From contig CAYOUG010000002.1 in the NCBI GenBank assembly GCA_964407105.1, positions 76,003 to 140,002 of the forward strand: a stretch of 64,000 bases of DNA. Direction: 5' to 3'. The notes below the pieces were generated by a model that did no database searches, was not told where the DNA came from, and saw only the letters and a program-made list of their open reading frames with translations. Positions within the stretch are counted from its first letter, which is position 1, and each line of letters begins with the position of its first letter. Source of the stretch: an uncultured Candidatus Saccharibacteria bacterium (GTDB lineage Bacteria; Patescibacteriota; Minisyncoccia; Phycocordibacterales; CALRHW01). This document shows, in pieces, positions 1 through 57,195 of the stretch. Position numbers and translations under genes: made by a program.

Positions 1-975
1 TTATCTCGTTTGCGTACCGATGAACACAAATCACCGCAAGATGGACGTTTTAGACACAAAAATAATGAAAATAGGTCTTTTGATGTACGTGTGTCTTGTG
101 TTCCAACACAGCACGGTGAAAGTGTAGTGCTGCGTCTTTTGGTAAATACTGCGAGTAATCAAACATTATTGAAACTTGGTTTTTCTAATAAAAATGAAGA
201 ACAAATATGTGGTGAATTAAAAAAACAGTGGGGAATGGTGCTTGTAACCGGACCAACAGGCTCGGGCAAAACCACAACGCTTTATACATTATTAAAAATA
301 CTTAACACTCGAGAAACATCAATTGTAACTATTGAAGATCCTATTGAGTACGCTCTTGATGGTATAAAACAAATTCAAACTCAGCCACGGGTTGGTCTTA
401 CATTTGCTCATGGTTTGCGTTCTGTTTTACGACAAGATCCAGACACAATAATGGTGGGTGAAATTAGAGATACTGAAACCGCACACATTGCGGTTAATAC
501 CGCACTTACCGGACACCTTCTCCTTTCGACACTTCATACAGTAAATGCTTCCACTGCCATTCCACGTTTGATTGATATGGGTGTAGAACCATTTTTGGTG
601 GCATCTACTTTGCGTGTGGTAATAGCGCAAAGACTTGTAAGAAAAATATGTGAAAAATGTAAAAAACCATTTAATTTTTCTGACATCGAAAAAGAGTCTT
701 GCAAAAAAATTTTTGGTTTTTATCCACGTTTGGTTTTTAGAGGTATTGGTTGTGACAATTGTTTGGGAAGTGGATATGTGGGGCGAATAACTGTTGATGA
801 GGTACTTATTGTAGACGAATATATTCGAGAGCTTATCGTGTCGCGAAGTTCTTCTGTATATATTCAAAAAAATGCATTTGATTTGGGTATGGTTTTGATG
901 GCACAAGACGGAATACAAAAAGTGGAAGAGGGAATTACAACAATAGAAGAGGTTTTACGATGCCTTCATGAATAA
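1..975 (+). CDS. pilB: Type IV pilus assembly / T2SS ATPase (PilB/GspE family), 5' partial at window edge
   Basis: Walker A GPTGSGKTT, C-terminal CxxC...CxxC zinc motif, and the frame is open from position 1. Confidence 0.85.
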   Translation, partial: LSRLRTDEHKSPQDGRFRHKNNENRSFDVRVSCVPTQHGESVVLRLLVNTASNQTLLKLGFSNKNEEQICGELKKQWGMVLVTGPTGSGKTTTLYTLLKILNTRETSIVTIEDPIEYALDGIKQIQTQPRVGLTFAHGLRSVLRQDPDTIMVGEIRDTETAHIAVNTALTGHLLLSTLHTVNASTAIPRLIDMGVEPFLVASTLRVVIAQRLVRKICEKCKKPFNFSDIEKESCKKIFGFYPRLVFRGIGCDNCLGSGYVGRITVDEVLIVDEYIRELIVSRSSSVYIQKNAFDLGMVLMAQDGIQKVEEGITTIEEVLRCLHE

Positions 976-2071
976 TTTAGTAACTGACAAATTCAAGAAA
1001 ATATTTGTTTTTTTGCGCACACTTTTTCAAAAACTTTCTATGCGCGAACAAGCTTTTGTTATTTCTAGACTTGCGTTTTTGATTGGAGCAGATATATCGC
1101 TTATAGAAAGTTTGAAAATGCTTAGGGAACAAGCAATACAAAAAAAAGAAAAACGCGCACTTGATTTTTTTATTACAGATGTGTCGCGTGGAATTTTTTT
1201 GTCGTCGAGTATTGAAAAAATTCATCCGCCATGGAATCATTTTTTGATTAGTGTTATTCGTACAGGTGAGATGACGGGAACACTTTATGCGAGTTTACAA
1301 TACGTAGCTCAAGAACTTAAAAAACGTCAAATTCTAGTACAAAAAATTATTGGAGCTCTTCTTTATCCGTTTTGTATTGCTGTGGCCACTGTGGGTGTGA
1401 CAGGTATGATTGTGTTATATATTTTACCTAAAATAACACCTATTTTTTCTAGTCTAGGTGCTGCACTTCCATTTTCAACACGCATGTTACTTTTTGTGTA
1501 TCGATGTGTTTTTGGGTACGGTATATATATTGGATGCTTGGTTTTTCTTTTCATTGTGTTGTTTTTTTATTTGTGGAAAAAAAATATTAAATTTCATAGG
1601 ATTTGTGAGCGCATTTTTTTGCGTGTGCCGATTGTTGGCACAATGATTCAATATTATGAAATTACCCAAACTTTTCACATGTTAAATGTGCTTATAAAAA
1701 ACAGCATGTCTTTAGAAGATTCTCTTTCTTATGTTGCTTTAAGTAGCGTAGCTATTGTTTATTCTGATTTGTATCATGTCTGTGCAAAAAATGTTGCTCA
1801 TGGTATGCGAATGTCGGTTTCGATTCGTGAGTCTAAATTATTTCCACCCATGGTTGCACAAATGCTTTCAGTGGGCGAGTCCTCGGGAAACATCGTTGAA
1901 GTTTCTTTGTATGTTTCTGAATATTATGAACAACAACTTGATGAAATAATTAAAAAACTTTCAAGTATGCTCGAACCAATACTTATGGTTATTCTTGGTG
2001 TCGTTGTGGGTTTTGTGGCGGTTTCTGTTATTAGTCCAATATATGAAATTACACAGAATATCAAAAGATAG
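968..2071 (+). CDS. pilC: Type IV pilus / T2SS platform protein (PilC/GspF family)
   Basis: 367 aa polytopic membrane protein; GspF-like repeats; overlaps pilB by 8 nt. Confidence 0.8.
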   Translation: MNNLVTDKFKKIFVFLRTLFQKLSMREQAFVISRLAFLIGADISLIESLKMLREQAIQKKEKRALDFFITDVSRGIFLSSSIEKIHPPWNHFLISVIRTGEMTGTLYASLQYVAQELKKRQILVQKIIGALLYPFCIAVATVGVTGMIVLYILPKITPIFSSLGAALPFSTRMLLFVYRCVFGYGIYIGCLVFLFIVLFFYLWKKNIKFHRICERIFLRVPIVGTMIQYYEITQTFHMLNVLIKNSMSLEDSLSYVALSSVAIVYSDLYHVCAKNVAHGMRMSVSIRESKLFPPMVAQMLSVGESSGNIVEVSLYVSEYYEQQLDEIIKKLSSMLEPILMVILGVVVGFVAVSVISPIYEITQNIKR

Positions 2072-2489
2072 TTTGTTTTTTAATCAAGGTTTTACTTTAG
2101 TAGAGCTTGTGGTTGTGCTTGGTATTATTACGGTTTTACTTTTTATTACACCAGTTTTTGATATTACTAATTTTGCACACGGAAATGTTTTTGATGAAGC
2201 AGGTTTTTTTTCTAATATTCTTGTGCGTGCCAGAAATATGTCGATGAATACAGACACAGTGTATGGTGTGCGTATAAAAGAAGAGACATATTTACTTATT
2301 TTTTTGAATGATTTTCAAGACGAAATAATAAAAGAAATTTTTCCTCGCGATAAAAATGTAAAAATTTTTGGACCAGAATTTGTTTTGTTTGAAAAAGGGG
2401 GTGGGGTGGGTGAACAAGCAGAAATTATTTTTGTAAATGGTAATGCATCTACCAGCGTTTTTATTAATTATGAAGGTGGTATTGAATAA
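2043..2489 (+). CDS. Prepilin-type N-terminal cleavage/methylation domain protein (pilin/pseudopilin)
   Basis: Short leader then G|FTLVELVVVLGII hydrophobic helix (class III signal); start chosen at in-frame ATG 2043 inside ORF 1995..2489. Confidence 0.6.
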   Translation: MKLHRISKDSLFFNQGFTLVELVVVLGIITVLLFITPVFDITNFAHGNVFDEAGFFSNILVRARNMSMNTDTVYGVRIKEETYLLIFLNDFQDEIIKEIFPRDKNVKIFGPEFVLFEKGGGVGEQAEIIFVNGNASTSVFINYEGGIE

Positions 2490-3906
2490 CAAAAAAGGTT
2501 TTATTTTGTTTGAGGTGGTGATTGCGCTTGCGCTTTCTGTTTTAGCGCTCGCCGTTTCGGCGAGCGCTACTTTTGGGGCGCAAGCGCTTCTTGTTGATAC
2601 TCAAATGTATACGCAGGCCATTTTTCAGGCGCAAGGTTTTTTGCAAAAAGTTGCAATTGATGCTCAAAATAATTTTAATTTTCTTTATTCTTCAACAACC
2701 CAAACCCAAGATAGTTTTCAACAAAATTATGACCAAATACTTGATGTTCTTGATATAACACCGTGTATTAAAAAAGTAGATGTAACAGAGGGGTGGCAAC
2801 AGGCTGGCCGTCTTCAACATGTTAGCTTGCAAACATTTATTACACACCCACTATATGTTTTAGAAACTGGTGAAATGTGTGTTGGTAATGAATTATTGTC
2901 TACAGAATGGGTTTTGTATCAAAAAAATACGTTTAACATAAATACAAATGAACCAACAGATGTTGATGTGGTTGATGACAGTATTTTTTTATCTTACAAC
3001 TCTGCAACATCAACCAATGTTGATATTCGTATTTTTGACAAAGAAAATCCTACAAATTTAATTTCTGAAATAGATATCGGTGAGGGCGTTTTTGCAATAG
3101 ACGTTACCAGAGATTATATTTTTGTAGCTGTAAATAGTACTTCAACTCAGCTTGTAATCATTGATATAAAAAATAGGGATAATCCATTTGTGGTTACTTC
3201 AAAATCTCTTTTTGGAGTTAATCCGCTCGGCTCTTATCCGCAAGCAAGAAGTATTTTCTTTTTTAATGATCGTATTTATATCGGCACAAAAGAAACCGCC
3301 GGACCAGAATTTCATATATTTGATGTGTCCAACCCCACAAATCCTATTGAAATTGGTTTTTTTGAGGTTACGCATAATATCAATGACATAGTTGTTCGTG
3401 ATGATGTTGCATATCTTGCAACATCTGCCGACACAAAAGAGCTTATTGTTTTTGATGTATCCGCACCCCGGGAAATACATGAAATTGGATATTTTAATGC
3501 GGGTTTAAGTACTGTAAATGATCGTGATGCCACAAGTCTTTATTTACTCGGAAACACTATTTATTTGGGTCGAAAAAGAGAAACGCAATTTAATCCAGAA
3601 CTTTATGCCATTGATATTTCGAATTCAACATTACCCACACTGTCTTGGTCTTTTGCAATTGGTTTAATGCAACCACTTTCATATGTGAGCGGTGTTATAA
3701 GGCGGGGGAATTTATTATTTGTTTCTAGTACTGATCCAGAAAACGGTTTTATTGTTTTTGATATTAAAGATACTTCAAATATAAAAAAGATTTCAGAAAA
3801 TAATTTTCAACCCCCAGTGATATCTTTTGATATACAAAAAGATGAAATTTATGCGGTTGATTCTTTTGGTGAAAATATTTTTGTCATTAGTGCAAACTCT
3901 GAATAA
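2470..3906 (+). CDS. Prepilin-like N-terminus fused to LVIVD-repeat beta-propeller domain (candidate pilus-tip adhesin)
   Basis: MKVVLNNKKG|FILFEVVIALAL prepilin motif; C-terminal repeats LVIIDIKNRDNP / HIFDVSNPTNP / LIVFDVSAPREI / FIVFDIKDTSNI resemble LVIVD repeats. Confidence 0.55.
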   Translation: MKVVLNNKKGFILFEVVIALALSVLALAVSASATFGAQALLVDTQMYTQAIFQAQGFLQKVAIDAQNNFNFLYSSTTQTQDSFQQNYDQILDVLDITPCIKKVDVTEGWQQAGRLQHVSLQTFITHPLYVLETGEMCVGNELLSTEWVLYQKNTFNINTNEPTDVDVVDDSIFLSYNSATSTNVDIRIFDKENPTNLISEIDIGEGVFAIDVTRDYIFVAVNSTSTQLVIIDIKNRDNPFVVTSKSLFGVNPLGSYPQARSIFFFNDRIYIGTKETAGPEFHIFDVSNPTNPIEIGFFEVTHNINDIVVRDDVAYLATSADTKELIVFDVSAPREIHEIGYFNAGLSTVNDRDATSLYLLGNTIYLGRKRETQFNPELYAIDISNSTLPTLSWSFAIGLMQPLSYVSGVIRRGNLLFVSSTDPENGFIVFDIKDTSNIKKISENNFQPPVISFDIQKDEIYAVDSFGENIFVISANSE

Positions 3907-3923: not shown

Positions 3924-4394
3924 ATGTCAAAAAATCGTGGTTTTACTTTGTTTGAGGTTTTAGTGTATTTGGCACTTATGTCGATACTTATAAGCGGTGT
4001 TTTTGTTTCTGGATATCAAATGCTTGAGAGTGGTGTTTGGATAAAACAAAAAGCAAATACATATATAAATGAACAGTTTGCGTTTCAAAAAATTGAAAAT
4101 GTGGTACGAGAAGGAAATGTGCTTGAGCCTGTTGTGTTAACAGAAGAAGGATATTCCACAAGCACCGAGCTTGTGGTTGATGTCGGTGAAACAGAGGTGC
4201 GTGTTTATGTTGAGGATGGTCGATTGTGGATTAAGCGTGGAGATGGGGAAGTGCGCGCGCTCACACCGCGCGCGTCGCACAGCACCACATTTTTCTGTGA
4301 GCGCGCGCTAAACACAAACACACCCAAAAATTCTCTCACAATTACTTTAAATTTTGATAACACTAAACTTTTAAATACAATATGGCTTCCATAA
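3924..4394 (+). CDS. Pseudopilin (prepilin-type N-terminal domain protein)
   Basis: MSKNRG|FTLFEVLVYLALMSIL N-terminus. Confidence 0.6.
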   Translation: MSKNRGFTLFEVLVYLALMSILISGVFVSGYQMLESGVWIKQKANTYINEQFAFQKIENVVREGNVLEPVVLTEEGYSTSTELVVDVGETEVRVYVEDGRLWIKRGDGEVRALTPRASHSTTFFCERALNTNTPKNSLTITLNFDNTKLLNTIWLP

Positions 4395-4783
4395 ATACCT
4401 CAAATCATAAATTAAAAAATGGCTACATCGCCATCATTTCTTCCATTATACTTAGTATGTTTTTACTATCTTTGGTGATAAGTCAGTCAATTTATAGTTT
4501 TTCTGCTCGAAATAACACACTAATGCTTGAATATAATGCGATACGCACTGAGCTTGCTTTAGCGTGTGTTCGTGTTGAGCTTGTATACATGACTTATGAC
4601 GAAACATATAATCCCTCCGAGTCAACACACATTGGCACAAACACATGCATAATAGAAAATATAAAATATGAGAACACAAAAGCAATTATTACTTCTTCCG
4701 CTTCATATCAAAAATCAACCACAACCATTGTTGTAACACTAGACCTTCAAACACACACGATCGTTTCTTGGTACCAAATTTAA
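4382..4783 (+). CDS. Hypothetical membrane-anchored protein, possibly PilX-like minor pilin
   Basis: N-terminal hydrophobic segment GYIAIISSIILSMFLLSLVIS; sits in the pilus operon and overlaps the upstream gene by 13 nt. Confidence 0.3.
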   Translation: MASINTSNHKLKNGYIAIISSIILSMFLLSLVISQSIYSFSARNNTLMLEYNAIRTELALACVRVELVYMTYDETYNPSESTHIGTNTCIIENIKYENTKAIITSSASYQKSTTTIVVTLDLQTHTIVSWYQI

Positions 4784-4815: not shown

Positions 4816-6057
4816 ATGCAAAAACAGAAAATTGTGATAGTGGGAGCGGGTTTTGCCGGAATAAATGCATATTTGTCGCTAATAAAACATCTAAAACCAT
4901 CAGAGGCACATATTACACTTATAAATAAAACCAATTATTTTCTATTCACCCCGATGCTTCATGAAGTTGCTACGGGAAGCTTAGGTGAAGATGTGATAGT
5001 AGAATCAGTAAGAAATATTATTTATAAAACAAACACAAGTTTTTTGGTGGCTGAAGTACAAAAAATTGATCTTGAAAAGAAAATTGTTTATACAACAAAT
5101 GGTGAAGAAAACTACGACTATCTTATTTTGGCGCACGGTGCCACCACCAATTTTTACAATATTGCTGGTGCAGAAGAACACTCACTTGTACTTAAAGACT
5201 TAGCAGAAGCTGTTGCTATGCGAAATCATTTTGTTTCTATTTTTGAGCAAGCTTCGGCGATAGAAAGTAAAGAAGCACGCAAAAAAATGCTTTCGTTTGC
5301 GGTGGTGGGTGGTGGCCCTACGGGTGTAGAACTTGTAGCAGAAATGGCCGACCTATTTTTTGAAACATTTAGAAAGTATTACAAAGGTGATATTTGTAAG
5401 GATGATGTTACTCTTTATCTTATCAATAAAGGCGTGGATTTATTACCAATTTTTGATAAATCTTTACGTAAAAAATCTTTACAGGTGCTTCAAAAAAAGG
5501 GTGTAAAAGTTTTTCTCAATAAAAATGTAAAAGAAATTACGACCGATAAAATTATTTTTTCGGATGAAGATTTTATTAATGTGTCTCACATAATATGGAC
5601 CGCGGGTGTAAAGCCAAATGAAATGTTTTTTGAACAACAAGTTGAAAAAGATAAAAACGGAAGAATTATAGTTGATCAATATGGAAGAATGAAAAATAGA
5701 AGTGATATTTTTGTACTTGGTGACAGTGCTTCTTTTGTTGGGGTGGATCAAAAACCACTTGCAATGCTTGCGCAGGTGGCAGTTCAGCAAGGAATTAAAG
5801 CTGGAATAAATATTTCATTAAGTATTCATAAAAAAACACTCTCACCTTTTATTTATCGCTCAAAAGGCACAATGGTATCGCTTGGTCAGTGGCAAGCGGT
5901 GGGGGAAATTTTTGGAATTTTGTTGAAAGGACCACTTGCTTGGTGGGTGTGGCGTACCGTGTATTTATTTAATTTTTCTTCGTGGCCAAAACGTATAAAA
6001 ATCGCTACAGATTGGACCATAAATCTTTTTTCTCCGCGAGATATTACTAAAGCTTAG
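4816..6057 (+). CDS. ndh: Type II NADH:quinone oxidoreductase (NDH-2, FAD-dependent pyridine nucleotide-disulfide oxidoreductase)
   Basis: Two Rossmann GxGxxG motifs (IVIVGAGFAG; FAVVGGGPTGVE) and about 410 aa length. Confidence 0.75.
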   Translation: MQKQKIVIVGAGFAGINAYLSLIKHLKPSEAHITLINKTNYFLFTPMLHEVATGSLGEDVIVESVRNIIYKTNTSFLVAEVQKIDLEKKIVYTTNGEENYDYLILAHGATTNFYNIAGAEEHSLVLKDLAEAVAMRNHFVSIFEQASAIESKEARKKMLSFAVVGGGPTGVELVAEMADLFFETFRKYYKGDICKDDVTLYLINKGVDLLPIFDKSLRKKSLQVLQKKGVKVFLNKNVKEITTDKIIFSDEDFINVSHIIWTAGVKPNEMFFEQQVEKDKNGRIIVDQYGRMKNRSDIFVLGDSASFVGVDQKPLAMLAQVAVQQGIKAGINISLSIHKKTLSPFIYRSKGTMVSLGQWQAVGEIFGILLKGPLAWWVWRTVYLFNFSSWPKRIKIATDWTINLFSPRDITKA

Positions 6058-39725: not shown

Positions 39726-40341
39726 TCATAATCACAAACTCAATACCATTTTCAGCAAGCACCTTTTCAGGCACTTTGTGATAGCTTCCAATACGATCTT
39801 TTTGAAGCATTCCATCGTGCACCGAAAATGCTTTCTTTGGTTTTACCGCAAGCGCATATCGCACAGCGTCGGCAATTTTGCACCACGGCCCCGCCACAGG
39901 AAGCGCGAGAATGTCCACCGGCTTTTCTGGATTATGAAAAGAATCGCCGGGATAGAAAAGTTTGTTGTCTATAAAATATCCAGTATTTTGCACCTGACCA
40001 ATCTCCTCAAAAATTTCTTCGTGTTTTCCATCAAATGCTTCTATCGTCACGCCTTGTATTTCTGTCTGCGCTCTACCCTCCAGTATTTCATACGGCACAC
40101 CTATTTCATCAAGCTTTTTGCCTACGCCCGTGTTGGTGATCACGCGCGCCTGAGGATTGTGTTTGAGCACTTCTGTAAGAGAGTCGGTATGGAGATGGTC
40201 GGCGTGTTCGTGGGTAATGAGCACAATGTCTATGCCTGTGAGTGTGTTTTGTGCAACAGAAAAATTCCCCGGATCAGTGAGAATGGTGAAGTTGTTTGTT
40301 TTGATGAGGAGGCAGCAGTGGCCGAGTTTTTTGAGGGTCAT
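39700..40341 (-). CDS. MBL-fold metallo-hydrolase
   Basis: LITHEHADH (HxHxDH) motif. Confidence 0.75.
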   Translation of the reverse strand: MTLKKLGHCCLLIKTNNFTILTDPGNFSVAQNTLTGIDIVLITHEHADHLHTDSLTEVLKHNPQARVITNTGVGKKLDEIGVPYEILEGRAQTEIQGVTIEAFDGKHEEIFEEIGQVQNTGYFIDNKLFYPGDSFHNPEKPVDILALPVAGPWCKIADAVRYALAVKPKKAFSVHDGMLQKDRIGSYHKVPEKVLAENGIEFVIMNEGDERGF

Positions 40342-40350
40342 GGGTATTTT

Positions 40351-41277
40351 TTATTGTATCTCAAGTTTCGGATATTTAGCATGCAAATTCTCGAGGTGTT
40401 GTTCGTGAGAGATGTCCGCAGTCTGGCACACATAGGAAAGTTTGCCGAGTATTATGTGAAGTGTGTTTTCGGATAATTTTACCTCGGTATATTTCTGAAT
40501 ACATATAACAACGTCTTTTGAATGAACGACGTTTTCTATAGGATCTGTTTTGAACTCGCAAGAATCGGTAAACACAACAATACTTTGGTAGACATTCTCG
40601 GGTATAGACGGCATGAGCAACTTAAGCGACACGATATGAGACCAGTTCTGCTTGATAGGATTATGAAATTGGAATTTATTTTTTCCACCGGGTCTCGCTT
40701 TATATAATGACTGGGTCCAATGTTCCTGATCCTTACCCCCGAATATCCATCCATTGTAATCCTTACTCTCAATCACAAATATACCAAACCTTGATACGAC
40801 CAAGTGATCTATCTGAGATGATCCGTTATGGTCCGAAGGAATTGTTAGATTATTGAAAATGAAATAGTCCTTATAGTTCAAACCTTCAGCAAGAATATGA
40901 GCAATCTCTTGCTCTCCATCAGTGAGTCCGTCCATGTAACACTTACAGCCATGTTTCTCGCTATTAATTTTTGCAATCTGGTCCTTGGTGGCGTATGCAG
41001 GAATATATAAATTATCTAACTTATCATTTTTTGGTTGACTCGTAAGTTTTCTAATAAGCCATATGATACCACCAAGTATCAATCCTAAAATTAATATTTT
41101 CTCCAAAACGGGGATCAAATTAGTAATAGCAAATGATACTGTGGATATTAATAAAACCAAAACAAAGACAACCCCAATTATAAAAATACCTTCAAATGAC
41201 CCAAAGGGCTCCTTATATTTTTTATAACGACGATGTCGATAATAGTATGGTTTTATGTAGTTACGATAATACCCCAT
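40351..41277 (-). CDS. NERD (nuclease-related domain) protein with N-terminal TM anchor
   Basis: GEQEIAHILAEGL...QIDHLVVSRFGIFVIESKDYNGWIFG matches the NERD pattern. Confidence 0.55.
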   Translation of the reverse strand: MGYYRNYIKPYYYRHRRYKKYKEPFGSFEGIFIIGVVFVLVLLISTVSFAITNLIPVLEKILILGLILGGIIWLIRKLTSQPKNDKLDNLYIPAYATKDQIAKINSEKHGCKCYMDGLTDGEQEIAHILAEGLNYKDYFIFNNLTIPSDHNGSSQIDHLVVSRFGIFVIESKDYNGWIFGGKDQEHWTQSLYKARPGGKNKFQFHNPIKQNWSHIVSLKLLMPSIPENVYQSIVVFTDSCEFKTDPIENVVHSKDVVICIQKYTEVKLSENTLHIILGKLSYVCQTADISHEQHLENLHAKYPKLEIQ

Positions 41278-41288
41278 TTAATTTTATT

Positions 41289-42689
41289 CTACTTCCCCTC
41301 TCCAACAATCTTTAGCCCCAACTCCTTCAGCTGCGCCACCGCTACCTCCGCCGGAGACTGCATCATCGGATCTCTACCCTCACCCGTTTTAGCAAAAGCA
41401 ATCACCTCGCGAATGTTCGGCTCGTTTTGGAGAAGCATTACAAGACGATCAAAGCCGAAAGCAAGGCCGCCGTGTGGTGGTGTACCTGAAGCAAATGCCT
41501 CAAGCATGTGGCCAAAGTTTTTTTCAATGCGCTCAGGTTCGTACCCCATAATTTCGAACACCGCACGAAGCATTGCAGGAGTGTGATTGCGAATTCCTCC
41601 ACCACCTATTTCAAATCCGTTGAGCACCATGTCGTATTGAGCAGCTACAATTCCTTCAATGTTTTTCTTGCCGAGCAGATCTGGCACAAACTCTGGCTTT
41701 GGTGCAGAAAACGGATTGTGTGTAAATGTCCACGCGCCTTCGTCTGTCTTTTCAAAAAATGGAAAATCTACAACCCAACAAAATGCGAGTTCGTTTGGAT
41801 CGTCTTTGTTCACGCGCAAGTCGGGCTTGTCGTTGCCATATTTTTCCATCGCTTCCTTGTATGAAAGTCGAGGAAATGGCGTCTGCAAAATCTTTTTTTC
41901 AGGATAGAGCGTGCGCACGAGCTCGGTAATCATCTTTTCATTCATTGCCATCACGTCTTCTTGCACGACAAAACTCATTTCAATATCTATCTGTGTAAAC
42001 TCAGGCTGTCGGTCGCCTCGTGTGTCTTCGTCACGAAAACATCGAGCGATTTGGAAATATCGTTCAAAACCAGCCGCCATGAGAAGCTGCTTGTATTGCT
42101 GTGGAGATTGTGGGAGTGCGTAAAATTTTCCTTGATCGAGGCGAGACGGCACGATGTAGTCGCGAGAACCTTCGGGTGTGGACTTTGTAAGGTTTGGTGT
42201 TTCTACTTCTGTAAAACCTTCGCGTGTGTAAAATTCGCGCACAAACTGAATTGCGCGATGACGATTGCGAATGTTTGCCTGCATTCTCGGGCGACGAAGA
42301 TCAAGGTAGCGATATTTGAGGCGAGTTTCTTCGTTGATATCGCGGCCGTCTGTGCCGACATCAAAAGCTGGTGTCTGTGCTTCGTTTAAAACGGCGATTT
42401 TTAGAATTTCAATTTCAAGCTCGCCATTAAGCTCGCCTGCTTTCACCATTTTTTCTGGACGCGGATTTACTTTTCCTGTTACTTCAATCACCCACTCGGT
42501 GCGTACAGTGTTGGCTGCCGCATGCGCTTCTGTGTGGTTTGGTAAAGCCACCATTTGCACTTTTCCAGAGCGGTCGCGCAAGTCGATGAAAATGAGTTTG
42601 CCGTGATCGCGACGAATATCCACCCAGCCTTTGATGAGGACTTCCGCACCGATGTGATTTTTAAGCTCGCCGATTAAAATTCTTTCCAT
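41289..42689 (-). CDS. aspS: Aspartate--tRNA ligase (short form)
   Basis: OB-fold N-terminus; class II motifs; bacterial-type signature QIARCFRDEDTRGDRQPEFTQID; motif 3 GGLAFGFDRL; GC-elevated. Confidence 0.85.
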   Translation of the reverse strand: MERILIGELKNHIGAEVLIKGWVDIRRDHGKLIFIDLRDRSGKVQMVALPNHTEAHAAANTVRTEWVIEVTGKVNPRPEKMVKAGELNGELEIEILKIAVLNEAQTPAFDVGTDGRDINEETRLKYRYLDLRRPRMQANIRNRHRAIQFVREFYTREGFTEVETPNLTKSTPEGSRDYIVPSRLDQGKFYALPQSPQQYKQLLMAAGFERYFQIARCFRDEDTRGDRQPEFTQIDIEMSFVVQEDVMAMNEKMITELVRTLYPEKKILQTPFPRLSYKEAMEKYGNDKPDLRVNKDDPNELAFCWVVDFPFFEKTDEGAWTFTHNPFSAPKPEFVPDLLGKKNIEGIVAAQYDMVLNGFEIGGGGIRNHTPAMLRAVFEIMGYEPERIEKNFGHMLEAFASGTPPHGGLAFGFDRLVMLLQNEPNIREVIAFAKTGEGRDPMMQSPAEVAVAQLKELGLKIVGEGK

Positions 42690-42777
42690 GTTGTTGCGAT
42701 ATGGTTATTGCGTCTTTTGATTAAATATATGGTGAATAATAGCAGAAAAAAGTTCGAAACAGAATATCTTTTGTTGG

Positions 42778-42806
42778 TTGACATTTGGTGTAAGGGGTGT
42801 TATTGT
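42778..42806 (+). promoter_or_regulatory. Sigma70-like promoter TTGACA-17-TATTGT for GC-rich orphan 42869..43138
   Basis: TTGACA at 42778-42783; AAGGAG RBS 6 nt before the ATG at 42869. Confidence 0.45.
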
Positions 42807-42868
42807 ATTTTCAGATCGTGAGATGTTCTTGCGATAACCTCTGTGAGGTGCTACCTATTTTGGTGGCC

Positions 42869-43138
42869 AAGTATAAGGAGTCAGTGATGATCATCAAGTG
42901 TGATAAAATTCCTGGTGACCGGTTTTTACGTCTGGTGGAATTCATTTTAGGAGCGGAGAACTTGGTTGATGAAAAGAACCAGGTTGTCAGCTTCAAAGGA
43001 GACATCAAGACTGATGAAGGGTGGTTCGCTGTCACTCTTGAAGTGAGAGACTGGTGGACTACAGAGAAATGGAGAAAGTATCGTGGGGTTTCGGAAAAGC
43101 TCCTTGTTAGGGTTTATCAAATCCTGAATCCATCCTGA
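42869..43138 (+). CDS. Hypothetical small protein (90 aa), compositionally foreign
   Basis: Start set at ATG with perfect AAGGAG RBS inside ORF 42797..43138; GC-rich; intrinsic terminator follows. Confidence 0.35.
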   Translation, partial: KYKESVMIIKCDKIPGDRFLRLVEFILGAENLVDEKNQVVSFKGDIKTDEGWFAVTLEVRDWWTTEKWRKYRGVSEKLLVRVYQILNPS

Positions 43139-43153
43139 ATCCAACTCTTGCAC

Positions 43154-43203
43154 CCCCCGCAAACAACAAAGACTTCGCGTCCGAGTTGTTGCGGGGTTTT
43201 TGT
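43154..43203 (+). terminator. Rho-independent terminator
   Basis: CCCCGCAAACAAC...GTTGTTGCGGGGTTTTTG. Confidence 0.7.
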
Positions 43204-43230
43204 TTGGAAAAATTTATAAAATTACAAAAG

Positions 43231-43277
43231 AAAAAGCCTCACCCAGAAGCGGTGACGCTTTTCTGGGTGGGGCTGTG
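43231..43277 (-). terminator. Rho-independent terminator for gene 43298..43798
   Basis: 14-bp stem AGCCTCACCCAGAA/TTCTGGGTGGGGCT (one G-U) followed by U-run on the minus strand. Confidence 0.7.
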
Positions 43278-43297
43278 ATCAGCTCATGAGCTGAGGG

Positions 43298-43798
43298 TTA
43301 CGTTGCTGCATCGATGAAGGGCTGCCAGCGCTCTGTGAGGCCGGGGAAGATTTCGGCCATTCCTCCCATGAGCGCTGGAAGAGCATCGTGGATCGTTTTC
43401 ACGTCTTTCATGCGACACGCCTCCCTTCGCACCCTGCTGTCGTCGTATGAAGTGTAGATTCGTCCCGCCCCCACTCGTTCTTCAAAAGATGTACTGTAAT
43501 TCGCATCTTCTGGGGACGTAACGCAATTCACTGTCACATTCGAACCATTTTTACCGAAGGTTACCGACCATATGCACCTAGTGGAAGGAAAGATTCTTTG
43601 GAATCGCGGCCTTGCTTCCAATGCATAGTACTCCACAAAAACACGCGCACCCTCACACACCGGATTGAGACTTGGAGAGGTACCAACAAGTCCAATAAGT
43701 GTGTACACAATGTGATCAATCTCCTGCCTCATACGGTCGATATTTTTCGAACCACGGACCAGCTGATCGACGATGTTTTCGCTCATTCTATCCTCCAT
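43298..43798 (-). CDS. Hypothetical protein (166 aa), compositionally foreign; promoter carries TACTGTACAGTA palindrome
   Basis: GC-rich ORF; upstream TTGACT-16-CATAAT with 12-bp palindrome at 43852-43863 overlapping the TSS. Confidence 0.4.
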   Translation of the reverse strand: MEDRMSENIVDQLVRGSKNIDRMRQEIDHIVYTLIGLVGTSPSLNPVCEGARVFVEYYALEARPRFQRIFPSTRCIWSVTFGKNGSNVTVNCVTSPEDANYSTSFEERVGAGRIYTSYDDSRVRREACRMKDVKTIHDALPALMGGMAEIFPGLTERWQPFIDAAT

Positions 43799-43896
43799 CT
43801 CTGGAAGGCCCTCTCGGGCGTTGCGAATGGGTATCTCTACCCGTTTAGAACTACTGTACAGTATTATGTAGTATTTTATTTAAAAGTCAATAGATA

Positions 43897-44910
43897 TTAG
43901 GATATGTTGAGCCCTACCTTCTCGCGCACCCCTTTCATCTTCACCTCTGCATGTTCATACATTTTCTCTCCGCCTTTTTTTAATATGTCTATCACACGCT
44001 TTGGATCTTTTGCAATTTCTTCACGACGAGTGCGAAGTGGAGCTACAAACGCAGAAATATTTTTCGTCAATATTTCTTTTGATTCTTTGTATCCAAGACC
44101 ACCTTTTTCATATCGCGCTCGGATGTCAGCGAGCTCGGCACCTTCATCAGCACCAGTCACACCGTTTACATTGCCGGCAAAAAGTTTGTGTAGTGCAAAG
44201 ACGTTACACGTGTCAGGATCTTTTGCCTCATCTACTCCCTTTGAGTCTGTAGGAATCTTCATTACACCTTTTTGAATTTCTTCGTCTGACGCAAAAAGGC
44301 CGATGGTGTTGCCATAGCTTTTACTCATCTTGCGACCGTCCGTGCCAGGGACAGTCATGACTTCTTTTAGAATGAGTGGCTCAGGAAGTGTAAACGTCTC
44401 GCCAAATATTCTGTTGAATTTTTCTGCTGTGTCGCGTGCGATTTCCAAATGCTGCTTTTGATCGGCGCCCACAGGCACGATATGTGCACCCGGAAGCAAA
44501 ATATCTGCCGCCATGAGAAGTGGGTAATCAAAAACGCCGACGTTTATTTCATGATTCTTCGCCTCCGCGTCTTTAAATGAATGCGCGCGCATGAGGTATG
44601 GCATCGTTGTGATGCAATTAAAAATCCACGTGAGCTCTGCGACTTGTGGCACGTCCGACTGCTTGTAGAGTGTTACTTTTTCTGGATCAAGACCAATGGC
44701 GAGGTAGTCTATGGCAAGGTCGAGTGTGTCGCGACTCAAGTCTGCAGGATTTTCTACTGACGTAAGAGCGTGAAGGTTTGCGATAAATAAATGGCTGTCG
44801 TATGTGTTTTGATTGTCCACAAACTGCTTCATCGCGCCAAAATAGTTGCCAATGTGTGGCCGGCCTGTTGGCTTTACACCAGACACAAGAATCTTTTTTT
44901 GCTTGTTCAT
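43897..44910 (-). CDS. trpS: Tryptophan--tRNA ligase
   Basis: KPTGRPHIGNYFGA (HIGH) and KMSKSYGN; start trimmed to MNKQKK ATG at 44910 (338 aa). Confidence 0.85.
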   Translation of the reverse strand: MNKQKKILVSGVKPTGRPHIGNYFGAMKQFVDNQNTYDSHLFIANLHALTSVENPADLSRDTLDLAIDYLAIGLDPEKVTLYKQSDVPQVAELTWIFNCITTMPYLMRAHSFKDAEAKNHEINVGVFDYPLLMAADILLPGAHIVPVGADQKQHLEIARDTAEKFNRIFGETFTLPEPLILKEVMTVPGTDGRKMSKSYGNTIGLFASDEEIQKGVMKIPTDSKGVDEAKDPDTCNVFALHKLFAGNVNGVTGADEGAELADIRARYEKGGLGYKESKEILTKNISAFVAPLRTRREEIAKDPKRVIDILKKGGEKMYEHAEVKMKGVREKVGLNIS

Positions 44911-45040
44911 TATGAATAAAATAATAGCAGAATGTGAGGGGTTTTGAAAGTAGAATACACGTATTTTATTTAAAAAAGAAAGGCTTCGAGTACATCGCGA
45001 AGCCTTAGGTGAGATCGGGAGAGATGTTTGTTCAGAAAGA

Positions 45041-45520
45041 TCACTCCAGCGAATCAGTCTTGAGTTTCTCAACCATCAACTGGAGTGAGATATCAAAGGT
45101 GACCTCGTAGAGAATCTCACAGAACAAAAGGTGGAGTTCATCGTCGCAGAACGACCAAAACTCACTGAATTCACGCTCCTTCCACTCCTGGACCACGGAG
45201 TCGATTTGGCCAGCCGCATGCCAGCCCCTCATAAGCAAACCCGTAGCAACTCGAGCCAGGGCGCCGACATGAATTGGACGCTCCTCATACAGAAAGGCGG
45301 CTAATGTCCAGCCGTTGCTGTACCACACCATTTCCTTGATGCGGTTGATCATTGTTTTTCTGTAGCGGTGAACGAGCCACTCAAAGGCAAGTTCACCGCG
45401 ACAATTTTGAGAAATTTGATCTGTGAGTTCACCAAGAATGTGTGGGTCATTCCGAAGAATGTGCTCCATAACTTCATGCGCTAGTGAATTTCGCCTCTCT
45501 AGAGAAATACGGTGTACCAT
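45041..45520 (-). CDS. Hypothetical protein (159 aa), compositionally foreign; promoter carries GTACTGCGCAGTAC palindrome
   Basis: GC-rich; upstream TTGACA(45589-45594 rc)-18-TATAAA, 14-bp palindrome 45549-45562, AAGGAG RBS 5 nt before ATG. Confidence 0.4.
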   Translation of the reverse strand: MVHRISLERRNSLAHEVMEHILRNDPHILGELTDQISQNCRGELAFEWLVHRYRKTMINRIKEMVWYSNGWTLAAFLYEERPIHVGALARVATGLLMRGWHAAGQIDSVVQEWKEREFSEFWSFCDDELHLLFCEILYEVTFDISLQLMVEKLKTDSLE

Positions 45521-45782
45521 AGAGTCTCCTTGGGGTGTGTCTGTTTATGTACTGCGCAGTACATTTTATATCACAAAAAACTATATTGTGTCAATATTAT
45601 TGTACATATAATAAAAGCTCAGACGAAAAGCTTTTTAGAAATTGACTCTATTTGGATTGGTTTGTTATACTGTATTCACAGTGCCGAAAGGCTTCGAGAA
45701 ACCCCGCCATATGGTGGGGTTTCGATTTTATAAGAAGGATTTTAATTTTTCCTTATAAAGAAAGTCTAAAATTTTGTTAAGG

Positions 45783-46577
45783 TTATAAATCTATTAAACT
45801 TTTCACTGCTCGCTCATGTCGCACCGCGTGACTTTCACCATATACCACAAATAAATTTTTTCCTTCATTCCAGAACTTTTCTATTTGTTTAAGAATGTGT
45901 GCGTCACGAAAAACATCGTCTTCGTATCGCGACAGTTCATTTATTCTACTTGTTGTTTTTGTGGGGTTTATAACACTGACAAAAAAATTTGCATCGTTTT
46001 CATTAAAATCTTTATCAAACCACTGTTTTTGAAGTGTAATCATGTGTTCTATAGAGAAATCAAAATCAGACCAACCGCTATTTTCTTTATCGCGAGCAAG
46101 TGAGCGTTTAAGATATTCTCTAAATGTATATTTTTTAGTGATATGTCGATTCCATTGATACGCCATTCGAGCAAATTCGTAATAAATAATTTCTTCTTTT
46201 GTAAACTTTTTAAGTAATTCTTCAAAACGATATTTTTCTGGAGGTTCTGGAGAAAAAGTTTCAATTCCCTCTTTGTTTGCATGGTAAGTAATAAAATTTG
46301 CTTCTGCGCCACACTCAAGCGCTTCAAGCTCAGAGTTATACACCTTACGTTTTCCACCCTCAACAAACACAACACAGTTTTGTTTCTTTGTTTTTTCTAA
46401 AAACTCAGCCCAAAATGTGCGCAAGATTGAATATTGTGGATCGTTTGGATCACACGAGTGGTTGGCACCAAAATAATACAAAAATTGATCACCTTTTTGA
46501 ATTGAATATGTGTATGGAACCGGATGACGATCAAGTTTGTTGTATTCGTCAAAGCCCATAAGGTGTTTTTCGATCAT
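45783..46577 (-). CDS. Hypothetical protein, possibly TraB/GumN/PrgY-family
   Basis: N-terminal YYFGANHS and C-terminal VVYGESHAV resemble the paired GxxH motifs of the TraB/GumN family; weak. Confidence 0.3.
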   Translation of the reverse strand: MIEKHLMGFDEYNKLDRHPVPYTYSIQKGDQFLYYFGANHSCDPNDPQYSILRTFWAEFLEKTKKQNCVVFVEGGKRKVYNSELEALECGAEANFITYHANKEGIETFSPEPPEKYRFEELLKKFTKEEIIYYEFARMAYQWNRHITKKYTFREYLKRSLARDKENSGWSDFDFSIEHMITLQKQWFDKDFNENDANFFVSVINPTKTTSRINELSRYEDDVFRDAHILKQIEKFWNEGKNLFVVYGESHAVRHERAVKSLIDL

Positions 46578-46592
46578 ATTTCTTTGATTAAC

Positions 46593-47681
46593 TTAAACCC
46601 CCTCACCCTTCAACTGCTCAATTAATTTTCTTGCTTCTTTAGAAAGTTTTTTAGGTAGATCGATATGCACGCGAATGAGTAGATCGCCACGGCTGGATTT
46701 TCCTGTAGGTACGCCCTTACCTTTTACGCGAAGTACTTCGCCGTGAGCCACGTTTTCTGGTGTCTTTACGGTAATGTCGCCGTCGAGCGTATGAATAGTG
46801 TGACTTGCACCAAGGAGTGCATCGGTGAGTTTTACATTTAAATCCATCACAAGACTACTGCCGTCTTTGCGAAATGTTGTGTGTCGTTTTACGTGGATTT
46901 TTATATACAAATCACCAGCGGTGCCGTCCACAATCGCTTCGCCAGCGCCCGTCATGCGAATCATTTCTCCATCATCAATACCAGACGGAATCTGTACTTC
47001 AATTTCGTTTTGTTTTTTAAGTACACCTTCGCCACGACATTCTTTACACGTATCTTTTGGGGTTTTACCTTTTCCGTGACATGTCTCACACGATCGTTCG
47101 GTGGCGATTGATCCGAGGATCGTGCGTTTTACATCACGAATACTTCCTTTGCCGTTACATGTTTTGCATGTTAGATATTCTGTGTTCGGTTCGCCACCTT
47201 GGCCTTTGCATCGGCTACACACAGATGTTTTGTTTAGTAAAATTTTTCGAGTGACACCGAAAACAGATTCTTGAAACGAAAGCTCGATGTCGATAGAAAT
47301 ATCTCGGCCACGTTTTGTTTGTTGTCGTCGCCCGCCACCAAAAATGTCACCGAAAATGTCTCCGAGATCAAAACCATCGAAGCCCTGACCACCCTGAGTA
47401 AATTGTGAGAAATCGAAACCGCCGAAGCCCCCTTGGCCTCCAAAGCCACCCGCGCCACCGCCGCCAGCTCCACTGAAGGTACGGCCATACGCATCGTACT
47501 CAGAGCGTTTTTGCTCGTTTGAGAGCACGCTGTATGCTTCGTTTACCTCTTTAAACTTCGCTTCGTTACCTCCTTTTTTGTCTGGATGATATTCATGCGC
47601 GAGTTTACGAAACGCTTTTTTTATTTCGTCTTGTGATGCGTCTTTTTTTACGCCCAGTGTTTCGTAATAATCTTTTGACAT
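46593..47681 (-). CDS. dnaJ: Chaperone DnaJ
   Basis: J domain with HPD (YHPDKK), G/F-rich linker, four CxxCxGxG zinc-finger repeats. Confidence 0.9.
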
Positions 47682-47813
47682 TGTTAAAGTTTTATAAGAA
47701 AAATTTTTTAAAATATATCTTTCTCCGGGTACGGATTTTTTGAAGCTTAAAAAATCCTGAAGCTCTCGCGCCGTCGCGCTCGAGACCCCCTCCGAAAGAC
47801 ATATTTGAAAAAA

Positions 47814-49727
47814 TTATGACTGATCATCCTTCTTTTCTTCAAAAGGCACGTCTGTGGGTTCTGTTTTTGCTCCTGTTCCGTTTGCACCAGCATTTGCTTC
47901 ACCCGCTCCAGCACCACTTGCTTGAGCGTTTTGTTGCATGTGTTGTCCAATTTTCTGAAGCTCGTTTGAAAGAAGACTTGTGGCTGAAGTGATAGCTTCT
48001 TTTTCGTTTCCATCTTTTGCTTTTTTGACCGCTTCAATAGCACCAGCGACAGAATTTTTGATATCTTCAGTAATTTTTCCTTCAGCATCTTTGAGTGCTT
48101 TTTCTCCAGTATATACGAGTTGCTCTGCAATATTTTTTGCCTCGATGAGTTCTTTTTTCTTTGCGTCTTCTGCGCTGTGCATTTCTGCATCTTTTTGCAT
48201 ACGCTCAATATCTGCTTTTGAAAGACCGGAGCTTGCCTCGATGCGAATAGATTGTTCTTTTCCGCTTGATTTATCTTTTGCTTTTACATTTAGAATTCCG
48301 TTGGCATCGATATCGAAAGTTACTTCTATCTGAGGCATACCACGTGGTGCCGGTGGAATTCCGTCTAGAATAAATTTACCAAGACTTTTATTATCTGATG
48401 CCATTGGTCGTTCACCTTGCACAATGTGAATTTCTACTGATGTCTGATTGTCTGCTGCGGTAGAATACACCTGAGATTTTGAAGCAGGAATAGTAGTATT
48501 TTTTGAGATGAGCATGTGAGCCACTCCTCCCATCGTTTCAATACCAAGTGAAAGCGGAATCACATCGAGAAGCAAAATATCTTTTACATCTCCTGTGATA
48601 ATACCCCCTTGAATAGCCGCGCCAAGCGCCACCACTTCATCAGGGTTGATAGATTTATTTGGTTCTTTTCCAAAAAATTCTTTTACAGCCTGTTCTATTT
48701 TTGGCATGCGGGTTTGTCCTCCAACCAAAATCACTTCGTCGATATCTGCAATTTTAAACGGAGATGCTTCCATCGCTCGTTTGGTAATCATCATCGCGCG
48801 TTCAATAAATTCACTTGTGAGTTCTTCGAGTTTTGCTCGATTCATTTTCATTACAAAATGTTTTGGACCACTTGCATCAGAAGTAATAAATGGAATATTA
48901 ATTTCAGTTTCCATCGCAGTAGAAAGTTCGTGCTTTGCTTTTTCCGCCGCTTCATCTAGACGCTGAAGTGCAAAAGAATCTTTTGTGAGATCAATTCCCT
49001 GTTCTTTTTTAAATTCATCAGCAAGGAAATGAATAATTTTTTGATCGATATCTTTTCCTCCCAAATGACTATCGCCGTCGGTTGATTTTACTTCTACAAC
49101 ATCACCACCAACCTCCAATACTGAGATATCAAAAGTACCACCACCGAAATCAAAGACAACAATTTTTTCATCTTTCTTTTTGTTGAAACCGTATGCTAGC
49201 GCTGCCGCTGTTGGTTCATTGATTATGCGCTTCACATCAAGACCTGCTATTTGACCCGCGTCTTTTGTTGCTTGGCGTTGTGCGTCGTTGAAATATGCAG
49301 GCACAGTAATTACCGCTTCGGTGATTTTTTCACCAAGCTTTGCTTCTGCGTCGGCTTTTAGTTTTTGTAAAATCATTGCAGAAATTTCTTCTGGTCGGTA
49401 GTCTTTTTCACCCATTTTTACAAGCACACCACCAGTGTTTGAACTAGAAATATCGTATGGAACAGTTGACTTGTCTTTTTGTACTGCAGGATCATTAAAA
49501 ATATGACCAATAAAACGTTTTATGCCAAAAACAGTATTTTTTGGATTTGTTACCGCCTGACGTTTTGCAAGTAAACCCACAGTGCGCTCGCCATTTTTAG
49601 ATACAGCAATAATAGACGGAGTGGTGCGTGCACCCTCAGCATTTTCAAGAATTTTCGGACCACCAGCTTCCATTACTGCTATTGCAGAATTTGTTGTACC
49701 CAAATCAATTCCTATTACTTTTGCCAT
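47814..49727 (-). CDS. dnaK: Chaperone DnaK (Hsp70)
   Basis: [10 protein letters not shown] and DLGGGTFD signatures, 637 aa. Confidence 0.95.
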
Positions 49728-55962: not shown

Positions 55963-57195
55963 CTATTCACTTTTTTCTGAATATAGTCGTGCACAAAAAA
56001 TACTTTCAAGAGCGATAAAAGGATCTTGTGGTATTTGTGGAGCGTAAGATACAAAATGAGATAATTTTTCTGCATCAAGCAAAACAATCGAAGTGTTTTT
56101 AAAACTCAGACTATTTTCTTCATTAATAGTCATGTGTTCTTGAATTGCTTGTATAAAAATTGGCGCAACCTCTTCGTCTACCGTTAAAAATATTTTAGAA
56201 AGTATTCCACCCTTTGCAATATCTGCGACGGAATGAAAAAAATAACTTCCCCACTCTTGCATTGCTTTTTTACAGACAGCCTCTATTTTTTCAGCAGACT
56301 CCGGTGCAACATGACCGCTTGCCTGCATATTGAGCATTGATAAAGCTATTTCTCCAGAAACATTAAATGTTTCAGAAATTTTTTGTATAAAATAATTGCG
56401 TCCAATTGGAAAAGAAGCGCTCTCCATAAGTACGTGGTTTTCGATTGAAGACACGTCGGTTACTTCTGCTGAAACATCGGCAAAGATGAACGTTGATTCG
56501 TTTGAGAAAATATCTCTCACTACACTGTGTCCCACAAGAGAAAAAGAATAAAAACTTAAATTGTTTGAATGAAAATATACACCAACAATGCGTTCGATTG
56601 CGTGTATCATGTTTTTTGAAGCAAGACTAATGAACATTGCAATTTCTACGTGCCGTGCTTTTTTTTGATATGGATTTGCTGTGGTGTAACCATTGAGTTT
56701 TGTTTGTATTACTCGTCTTTCTACACAGTCGAGATCATTTTTTGAATCTGATGTGCTGAGCGAAGTATTTTTTTCAGACAATTCTTGTTTGAAAATACCC
56801 TCTTCTTTTTCAAGGAGTGAATCGATAAAATTTTTTGTAATTGAAATTGGTTGTTCGTTTTCTATCGTAAGTACTTTTGTTTTTGAAATGTACCAAGGTG
56901 AAGATAGTATACAAAAAGTATGACCTATCTTTTGTATTGGTAAATTTAATGCTTTTATATATTCTGGACCTTCTTTTGCTACAGCAGAAATTACTTCCTC
57001 AAGCATATTTAATACCAACGAAGAAAGTTTTTGAGAATCTGTATTAATCCCTATTGTAAGCGGAAGACGTTTTGAATATATAATTTGTGAAGGGTTTCCA
57101 GCGCTATGGTATACGAGTCCTGCCGCGACACTTCCATTGCCAACATCAAGTATTAGATGAATATCTTTTTCATTTTTTTCTTTAAAGAAACTCAT
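55963..57195 (-). CDS. Hypothetical actin-like ATPase-fold (ASKHA) protein, FtsA/PilM/Ppx-like
   Basis: N-terminal phosphate-1-like ILDVGNGSVAAGLV; about 410 aa. Confidence 0.35.
   Translation of the reverse strand: MSFFKEKNEKDIHLILDVGNGSVAAGLVYHSAGNPSQIIYSKRLPLTIGINTDSQKLSSLVLNMLEEVISAVAKEGPEYIKALNLPIQKIGHTFCILSSPWYISKTKVLTIENEQPISITKNFIDSLLEKEEGIFKQELSEKNTSLSTSDSKNDLDCVERRVIQTKLNGYTTANPYQKKARHVEIAMFISLASKNMIHAIERIVGVYFHSNNLSFYSFSLVGHSVVRDIFSNESTFIFADVSAEVTDVSSIENHVLMESASFPIGRNYFIQKISETFNVSGEIALSMLNMQASGHVAPESAEKIEAVCKKAMQEWGSYFFHSVADIAKGGILSKIFLTVDEEVAPIFIQAIQEHMTINEENSLSFKNTSIVLLDAEKLSHFVSYAPQIPQDPFIALESIFCARLYSEKSE

Follow-up and report, generated by a model that had tools for sequence, protein, structure and literature searches.

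The window analysed here, a stretch of 64,000 nucleotides from contig CAYOUG010000002.1 of an ultra-small bacterium of the Patescibacteria, encodes on its forward strand a 478-residue protein (2470..3906; identified by Pfam, homologue alignment, an AlphaFold2 model and Foldseek) in which a prepilin-type module with a predicted pilin fold is fused to a beta-propeller modelled with seven blades of LVIVD repeats. The gene for this propeller pilin is consistently found in a set of four minor-pilin genes behind pilB and pilC. Very likely, the protein serves this type IV pilus machinery as a modular minor pilin. The fuller reading, in which this minor pilin belongs to the tip or priming complex and displays its propeller as a binding module, appears reasonably probable to us, and by analogy with other pili we lean slightly towards a protein that is displayed at the tip and mediates binding. 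The terms "tip adhesin" and "host attachment", which a first-pass annotation of this DNA had put forward, would likewise apply by analogy.

The propeller occupies residues 151–474 (2920-3891, from Pfam and the model). The Pfam LVIVD model PF08309 matched the propeller pilin over three stretches with 46.8 bits (E 1.8e-12; gathering score 20.2) and also matched 45 of the 49 full-length homologues in the alignment (A1) from which all conservation values given here were taken. The AlphaFold2 model of the full protein, built from the same 49 sequences, had a mean predicted local distance difference test score (pLDDT) of 91.9 and a predicted template-modelling score (pTM) of 0.87. Between residues 151 and 474 it places 27 strands, which form seven four-stranded blades over about 330 residues, and an LVIVD-like motif makes up the last (D) strand of every blade. 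From first to seventh, these D strands are IRIFD (186-190), LVIID (228-232), FHIFD (281-285), LIVFD (325-329), LYAID (378-382), FIVFD (427-431) and IFVIS (469-474). The first-pass annotation had predicted at least five LVIVD-like blades; the propeller itself is borne out by both the Pfam score and the model, and the number of blades becomes seven with the addition of the IRIFD and IFVIS strands.

Structural comparison of the full model with the PDB gave 247 Foldseek matches at E<=1e-3, and the best 50 of these were beta-propellers or propeller-containing chains, including Tako8, G-beta, WD40 proteins, BamB and virginiamycin B lyase, at 10–15% identity. PilY1 was not among these best 50 of the 247. 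Sequence search of the PDB with the full protein returned chance matches only, such as a cytochrome P450 at E ~0.5. The propeller has a generic fold, and no solved structure stands out as a specific relative. Since virginiamycin B lyase propellers are among the matches (TM 0.70-0.76 on target), and since blade 3 contains a conserved Glu and a conserved His, the propeller might instead have a catalytic role, perhaps as a lyase or hydrolase that the pilus delivers to a polymer of the host envelope. We find this highly improbable, as the lyase matches reflect a generic fold, at 10–13% identity and amid hundreds of non-enzymatic propellers, and neither Pfam nor NCBIfam assigned the protein to an enzyme family.

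The N-terminus of the propeller pilin, MKVVLNNKKG/FILFE (the slash marks the predicted cleavage position), consists of a short leader (2470-2499, from alignment and model) that ends with Gly at position -1, followed by Phe at +1 and Glu at +5. Gly-1 (G10) is kept in 94% and Glu+5 (E15) in 98% of the homologues. A profile of the first 150 residues matched solved type IV pilins in the PDB, with the alignment running from the leader through alpha1; the best match was Geobacter PilA-N (E 0.0024), and major pilins came next. In the AlphaFold2 model, residues 1–9 of the leader are disordered, residues 11–71 form one long helix (alpha1, 2500-2682) and residues 75–125 form a four-stranded antiparallel sheet (2692-2844). 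When the pilin module, defined as residues 1–125, was modelled alone, this "lollipop" fold was retained with a pLDDT of 87.7. The class III (prepilin) signal claimed in the first-pass annotation is thus supported by conservation of Gly-1 and Glu+5, by the profile match to solved pilins and by the predicted fold, as well as by the pilin genes that neighbour it behind pilB and pilC in about 30 genomes.

The segment between the two modules is a Cys-containing linker (2845-2919, from model and sequence). The propeller pilin has only two cysteines, C99 and C137, and only two tryptophans, W109 and W147, each at least 92% conserved among the homologues. One cysteine lies in the pilin sheet and the other in the linker just ahead of the propeller, and we infer that C99 and C137 form a disulfide like that in the D-region of pilins.

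Homologue alignment also bears on where the gene begins. The open reading frame (ORF) listing gives 2437..3906 on the forward strand, or 489 residues counted from the first ATG, but the gene contains three in-frame ATGs, at 2437, 2443 and 2470. The public gene call starts at 2443 (487 residues), and the start at 2470 is a later in-frame ATG of the same ORF, with a product of 478 residues. In the alignment of full-length homologues, the Met at 2470 coincides with the conserved start (98%), and this start leaves the leader of 10 residues, MKVVLNNKKG, described above. No clear ribosome-binding site was found that would discriminate among 2437, 2443 and 2470. The alignment supports 2470 over the two upstream candidates. 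The first-pass annotation paired the start at 2470 with a length of 489 residues; the ORF is real, but the two values refer to different starts. The peptides quoted in that annotation were all found, at residues 8-22, 228-239, 282-292, 325-336, 378-389 and 427-438.

The gene for the propeller pilin is the second of four pilin-like genes that directly follow an ATPase gene and a platform gene. The window opens within the gene for a GspE/PilB-type assembly ATPase, and only its 3' part is present (10..975, forward strand, as are all genes of the operon; Pfam T2SSE, 349.6 bits). In locus L001 (2669-3871) the full ATPase has 400 residues, and in relatives it also has ~400–405. The full-length L001 protein scored 499 bits with the NCBIfam GspE model (cut-off 630), 461.7 with PilB, 256 with ComGA and 177 with PilT. 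It covers positions 101-484 of the GspE model, and its alignments to GspE and PilB begin at about 100-190, so that it is without the N-terminal domains of canonical PilB/GspE. The next gene encodes a PilC/GspF-type platform protein of 367 residues (968..2071), matched by Pfam T2SSF in two stretches (124.7 bits) and by NCBIfam GspF (215 bits, below the cut-off). We did not take the operon for a Com-pilus (ComG) operon, as ComGA scored 256 bits versus 499 for GspE, and ComGB 106 versus 215 for GspF. Successive genes overlap by 8 (ATPase and platform), 29, 20 (pilin 1 and the propeller pilin, counted from 2470) and 13 nt, and there is one gap of 17 nt. The T2SSE ATPase, the T2SSF platform and the flanking pilins matched by the Pfam N_methyl model PF07963 establish the pilB-pilC-pilin context that the first-pass annotation had described.

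In the first minor-pilin position is pilin 1 (2043..2489, 148 residues), with the N-terminus NQG/FTLVELVVVLGIITVLL; its G/FTLVE motif matched N_methyl with 24.0 bits (cut-off 21.2) and TIGR02532 with 23.7 bits (cut-off 16.3). Pilin 1 had weak ComGD and GspH matches in NCBIfam and is GspH/FimU-like by position only. Pilin 3 (3924..4394, 156 residues, NRG/FTLFEVLVYLAL) is in the third position, and its G/FTLFE motif matched N_methyl with 33.7 bits and TIGR02532 with 20.0 bits (cut-off 16.3). Searched against the PDB, the family profiles of pilins 1 and 3 picked up solved type IV pilins at their N-termini (E 5e-6 and E 2.5e-4, respectively). The fourth pilin-like protein (4382..4783, 133 residues, KNG/YIAIISSIILSMFLL), recognised from its sequence itself, has Gly-1 and a hydrophobic helix (G/YIAII) and is without Glu+5. 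Across 21 related loci (for example L005 9979-10362 and L035 9949-10329), its N-terminus reads G/[FY][IV]AL[IV]S, with Glu+5 in none, and G14, A59, C62 and C89 are invariant. It had no Pfam match and no PDB sequence match, and its family profile matched nothing relevant in the PDB. Capping subunits of the GspK/PilX/ComGG type are characterised by the absence of Glu+5. We also attempted to type the neighbours as GspH, GspJ and GspK by profile and set this aside, as the profiles of pilins 1 and 3 matched only the N-terminal helix that pilins share. Because these searches gave no subtype, H-I-J-K labels depend on gene order and on the missing Glu+5.

Elsewhere in the 64 kb, a six-frame motif scan found no prepilin motif beyond those of the three operon pilins. 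The adjacent reverse-strand ORFs 55963-57195 (410 residues) and 54504-55904 (466 residues, with one predicted transmembrane helix) have no Pfam family, and the former had only a non-significant PDB match to Myxococcus xanthus PilM (E 0.16); the pair could represent divergent proteins of pilus alignment or of cell division. A promoter and terminator scan gave counts equal to those of shuffled sequence, and the window yielded no tRNA or Rfam element. We also note that G+C is 0.41–0.46 at 40001-48000 compared with 0.31–0.40 in the rest of the window, and that this segment has housekeeping-looking ORFs, such as a tRNA-synthetase-like ORF of 466 residues (41289-42689).

The operon is conserved across Paceibacteria. 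Of 33 GTDB species genomes with a member of the family, 30 have pilB and pilC immediately before it; two of the remaining loci are on truncated contigs and one is without pilB and pilC. The order of pilin 1, LVIVD pilin, pilin 3 and the fourth protein without Glu+5 was constant in the 27 loci inspected, with pilin 1 missing from a few. Thus, the comparison with related genomes that the first-pass annotation had recommended shows the same gene order in about 30 Paceibacteria genomes. In most of the more distant loci, the operon is followed by a fifth gene for a protein of ~150 residues with a highly conserved, major-pilin-like N-terminus (KGFTLIEILVVIGIIAILA..INP; L004 10463-10912, L005 10441-10905, L035 10410-10880 and others). 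This gene is absent after position 4783 of the window and in the closest relatives, where an NDH-2 gene (4816-6057 in the window) is found instead, so the major pilin of this genome must lie elsewhere.

A word-indexed search found 92 relatives, ~50 of them full-length (450–550 residues), and the closest relatives share 48% identity with the propeller pilin. Where source names were given for full-length relatives, all were Patescibacteria, Parcubacteria or Paceibacterota, or carried the label "PulG pseudopilin". Adler-, Kaiser-, Vogel-, Zambryski-, Giovannoni- and Colwellbacteria and Minisyncoccia were among the GTDB matches. Several third-party assemblies among these matches are labelled "uncultured Ca. 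Saccharibacteria", a label that was not confirmed. Family members are mostly annotated as hypothetical proteins. More distant matches of the word search were proteins of 600–800 residues that are sorted by the type IX secretion system (T9SS) or carry Beta_propel/LVIVD domains. In an exhaustive profile search, the best 150 representatives all had E<=1e-121, and 129 of these were single-stretch, full-length matches, so at 50% identity the family comprises no fewer than 129 clusters. The other 21 of the best 150 were giant multi-propeller proteins, some of which start with a prepilin motif. Two examples with a canonical prepilin motif at the start are P0093 (1998 residues, NKG/FLLVELLVAMGIF) and P0191 (1295 residues, ESG/FSMVEIILALAIF), each with 8–9 LVIVD-like strands over several matched stretches, which makes them multi-propeller modular pilins.

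We propose that a prepilin peptidase would cleave the propeller pilin after Gly10, and that the mature protein would join the other three minor pilins in a complex that primes filament assembly and so comes to lie at the distal tip. Its position in this priming complex would be that taken by GspI-GspJ-GspK and by PilV-W-X(-PilY1) in other systems, and the fourth protein, without Glu+5, would act as a cap. This would leave the propeller exposed as a binding module at the pilus tip or close to it, where it may contact the host-cell surface or another external ligand. In this arrangement the propeller pilin would stand in for a separate PilY1, in parallel with PilB of Streptococcus sanguinis and PilX2 of Saccharibacteria.

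Several observations weigh against this proposal, and the first concern the N-terminal module. The first-pass annotation had called the class III signal "textbook"; the motif is visible and conserved, but the N_methyl model gave the propeller pilin 17.8 bits against a cut-off of 21.2, and only 9 of the 49 homologues reached E<=0.01 with it. The NCBIfam scan did not report TIGR02532 for the propeller pilin. Despite the few N_methyl matches, the G/F..E pattern is present in all 49 family members. Foldseek with the isolated pilin module found nothing at E<=1e-3, the best pilin match being EpsI (GspI) of Vibrio type II secretion (2ret_A; probability 1.0, TM 0.63 on target, E 0.08). NCBIfam model NF047828, XpsI (GspI), matched the propeller pilin weakly (E 1.7e-4, 21.7 bits versus a cut-off of 150). 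The structural match to EpsI and the hidden Markov model match to XpsI are independent leads that point, weakly, in the same direction and in themselves speak for a pilin module; on the negative side, the GspI-like assignment depends on these two weak matches. Further, we identified no prepilin peptidase (PilD), major pilin, PilT or PilM/N/O in the window, and Pfam searches of ten of its membrane or unknown ORFs found no PilD, major pilin or PilM/N/O; processing and assembly of the propeller pilin are therefore assumed.

The sub-threshold N_methyl score and the failure to find PilD among the window ORFs examined would fit an N-terminal helix that is an uncleaved membrane anchor, in which case the protein would be a bitopic surface propeller that is co-transcribed with pilus genes and never polymerised. 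PilX1 and PilX2 of TM7x, which are predicted to be without PilD signals (PMC12206443), would be a precedent. We nevertheless judge this improbable. An ordinary signal peptide or transmembrane anchor, which the first-pass annotation had named as the alternative, would have no need of Gly-1 and Glu+5, and the model has a helix of 60 residues against which a pilin sheet packs. The match of the N-terminal profile to solved pilins and the fixed place of the gene between canonical pilins in about 30 genomes likewise favour a pilin.

The retained Glu+5 suggests that the propeller pilin is probably not the very first, topmost subunit, which is a further difficulty for a place at the tip. Body subunits retain Glu+5 as well, and the protein could be incorporated along the filament body, even as an abundant subunit, which would give a pilus decorated with propellers. 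Consistent with this, no major pilin adjoins the operon in the clade of the window, and a body location of modular pilins was not excluded by Raynaud et al. (PMC8179133). Such a filament seems quite unlikely to us: subunits that each carried a propeller of ~36 kDa would pack with difficulty, a separate major-pilin-type protein of 150 residues is encoded just downstream in most related loci, and the pTM of 0.87 suggests a rigid rather than a flexible link between the modules.

The distribution of conservation within the propeller also fits imperfectly with adhesion to a host. The most conserved stretch of the family, found by alignment, covers most of blades 3 and 4 (residues 228–336; 3151..3477). 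The mean majority-residue fraction was 0.65 in blade 3 and 0.62 in blade 4, compared with 0.37–0.52 in the pilin module and the other blades. Blade 3 contains a near-invariant motif, GT.ETAGPEFHIFDVS, at residues 275–287, and AYLATS is a further conserved segment of the blade 3-4 stretch. G278, E280, A317 and G367 are invariant, and T273, T276, G278, E280, F281, H282 and A317 are invariant or near-invariant among homologues that are only 27–48% identical. Conservation above that of the rest of the protein is a poor fit to a fast-evolving, host-specific adhesive surface and is better matched by a conserved ligand, a metal site or contact with a partner subunit. Judged from sequence, blades 3 and 4 could hold a site for a common ligand, a metal or regulatory site or a partner contact, or they could be under plain structural constraint. 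In addition, LVIVD propellers have no demonstrated function (PMC2447325, PMC10210494).

These residues are one argument for a tip or priming subunit whose propeller is not a host adhesin and instead binds a common ligand, such as extracellular DNA for uptake (as with ComZ and the Com-pilus tip) or a cell-wall polymer, or serves as a regulatory or metal module like the calcium site of PilY1. The operon is compact and Com-like, with a 400-residue ATPase without N-terminal domains, a platform and short pilins; the neighbouring pilins have weak ComGD, ComGE and ComGF matches, and the operon has no retraction ATPase. We hold this explanation to be possible and unlikely, given that GspE/PilB and GspF outscore the ComGA and ComGB models by a wide margin, that Pfam found no known nucleic-acid-binding signature in the propeller and that the conserved positions of an LVIVD propeller may be merely structural.

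A bolder form of our proposal, which we regard as doubtful, is that the LVIVD-propeller pilin replaces PilY1 across the Paceibacteria, with the propeller carried on the pilin in the GspI/PilV position and the exceptionally conserved site in blades 3 and 4 (GT.ETAGPEFHIFDVS ... AYLATS) as its functional pocket. The pocket would then bind one ligand shared by all hosts of the class (or DNA), or it would control priming and retraction as the calcium site of PilY1 does. If this were true, a single family would serve a whole class of ultra-small bacteria, most of whose hosts are unknown, as its conserved organ of contact, and LVIVD propellers would have their first assigned function.

The smaller claim, of a propeller-bearing minor pilin, has its own uses. 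The Paceibacteria (Parcubacteria) rank with the most abundant uncultivated bacteria, and hardly any of them has a known host or a known means of attachment. The LVIVD pilin offers a concrete handle on this problem, being a conserved, easily recognised and predicted surface-exposed module of their pilus machinery and a well-defined candidate for the contact module of Paceibacteria pili. As N_methyl picks up only 9 of 49 family members, catalogues of modular pilins based on domain architecture miss most of the family, and domain signatures undercount modular pilins. The finding leaves the current view unchanged: it extends a known strategy, with PilX2 and PilY1 as precedents, to another lineage, and the LVIVD pilin is a solid, unsurprising example of the modular-pilin class, since pilin-LVIVD architectures were already tabulated in 2021 (PMC8179133).

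Compared with known systems, the gene set resembles the tip complexes GspI-GspJ-GspK (EpsI/J/K) and PilV-PilW-PilX in having four consecutive minor-pilin genes, the last without Glu+5. The GspH-I-J-K and FimU-PilV-PilW-PilX sets prime assembly and end at the filament tip, and GspK is without Glu+5. In the window, however, the bulky extra domain is C-terminal on the second (I-position) subunit, whereas GspK has an inserted alpha-domain, and matches to the GspI/PilV models are far below the family cut-off. We found no secretin gene among the Pfam-annotated genes of the loci read; Paceibacteria are generally considered to be without an outer membrane.

The LVIVD repeat is also found in extracytoplasmic surface proteins of bacteria and archaea (PF08309; Adindla et al. 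2004, PMC2447325). They and the choice-of-anchor B proteins share their repeat with the window propeller, but LVIVD surface proteins have Sec signals, T9SS or other anchors, whereas the window protein has a prepilin N-terminus. Identity with choice-of-anchor B (TIGR04312) was rejected at 25.5 bits versus a cut-off of 100.

PilY1/PilC of type IVa pili (Pseudomonas, Neisseria, Myxococcus) is a tip propeller that acts with four core minor pilins in adhesion and priming (PMC8179133, PMC12206443). In contrast to the window propeller, which is covalently fused to a pilin, PilY1 is a non-pilin protein with a specific domain (IPR008707) that docks non-covalently on minor pilins. The window protein had no match even at E<=1 to PF05567, which we take to be the Pfam model of the PilY1/PilC family. 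It would be a functional analogue of PilY1 only and lies outside the PilY1 family.

A nearer comparison is PilX2 of the saccharibacterium Nanosynbacter lyticus TM7x, a minor pilin with a C-terminal seven-bladed propeller of RCC1 repeats (PMC12206443). Its deletion reduced host binding from 10.6% to 4.6% of hosts, and it was proposed as the adhesin of the T4P-2 filament and compared to PilY1 (PMC12206443). Both proteins are Patescibacteria minor pilins with a C-terminal seven-bladed propeller. The window protein differs in its LVIVD repeats, with no RCC1 match in Pfam, and in its canonical G/F...E5 motif, and it is set apart from PilX2 by the description of the latter.

The broadest comparison is with modular pilins, as defined by Raynaud et al. 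2021 (PMC8179133), whose catalogue holds 1,219 proteins in 264 architectures. The prototype, S. sanguinis PilB, joins a pilin to a vWA module that is a proven adhesin, S. sanguinis PilC joins a pilin to a lectin, and modular pilins were argued to be tip-exposed (PMC8179133). Dataset S1 of that study lists IPR012902-IPR013211 (N_methyl plus LVIVD; IPR013211 is the LVIVD repeat, PMC10210494) architectures for at least 30 proteins (8+8+7+4+1+1+1), with 1–13 LVIVD repeats, and the authors mention an 860-residue Falkowbacteria pilin with 12 copies of a "motif of unknown function" (PMC8179133). The first-pass annotation had described pilins with a large C-terminal propeller as unusual; this was overstated, given these catalogued architectures and the propeller minor pilin of Saccharibacteria. 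Our full-text literature searches found no analysis of the LVIVD-pilin family or of its constant position in the Paceibacteria operon. Like the modular pilins, the window protein consists of an N-terminal pilin module and an extra domain that is not specific to pili, and it is encoded with its machinery. The LVIVD cases were only counted in the catalogue, whereas the module in the window is modelled as a complete seven-bladed propeller on a pilin module that weakly resembles GspI. In Paceibacteria, the LVIVD pilins have a fixed place in the operon, and the N_methyl signature misses most of these pilins. The window protein belongs to a recognised kind, the modular pilins, and stands outside the PilY1, S. 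sanguinis PilB and PilX2 families.

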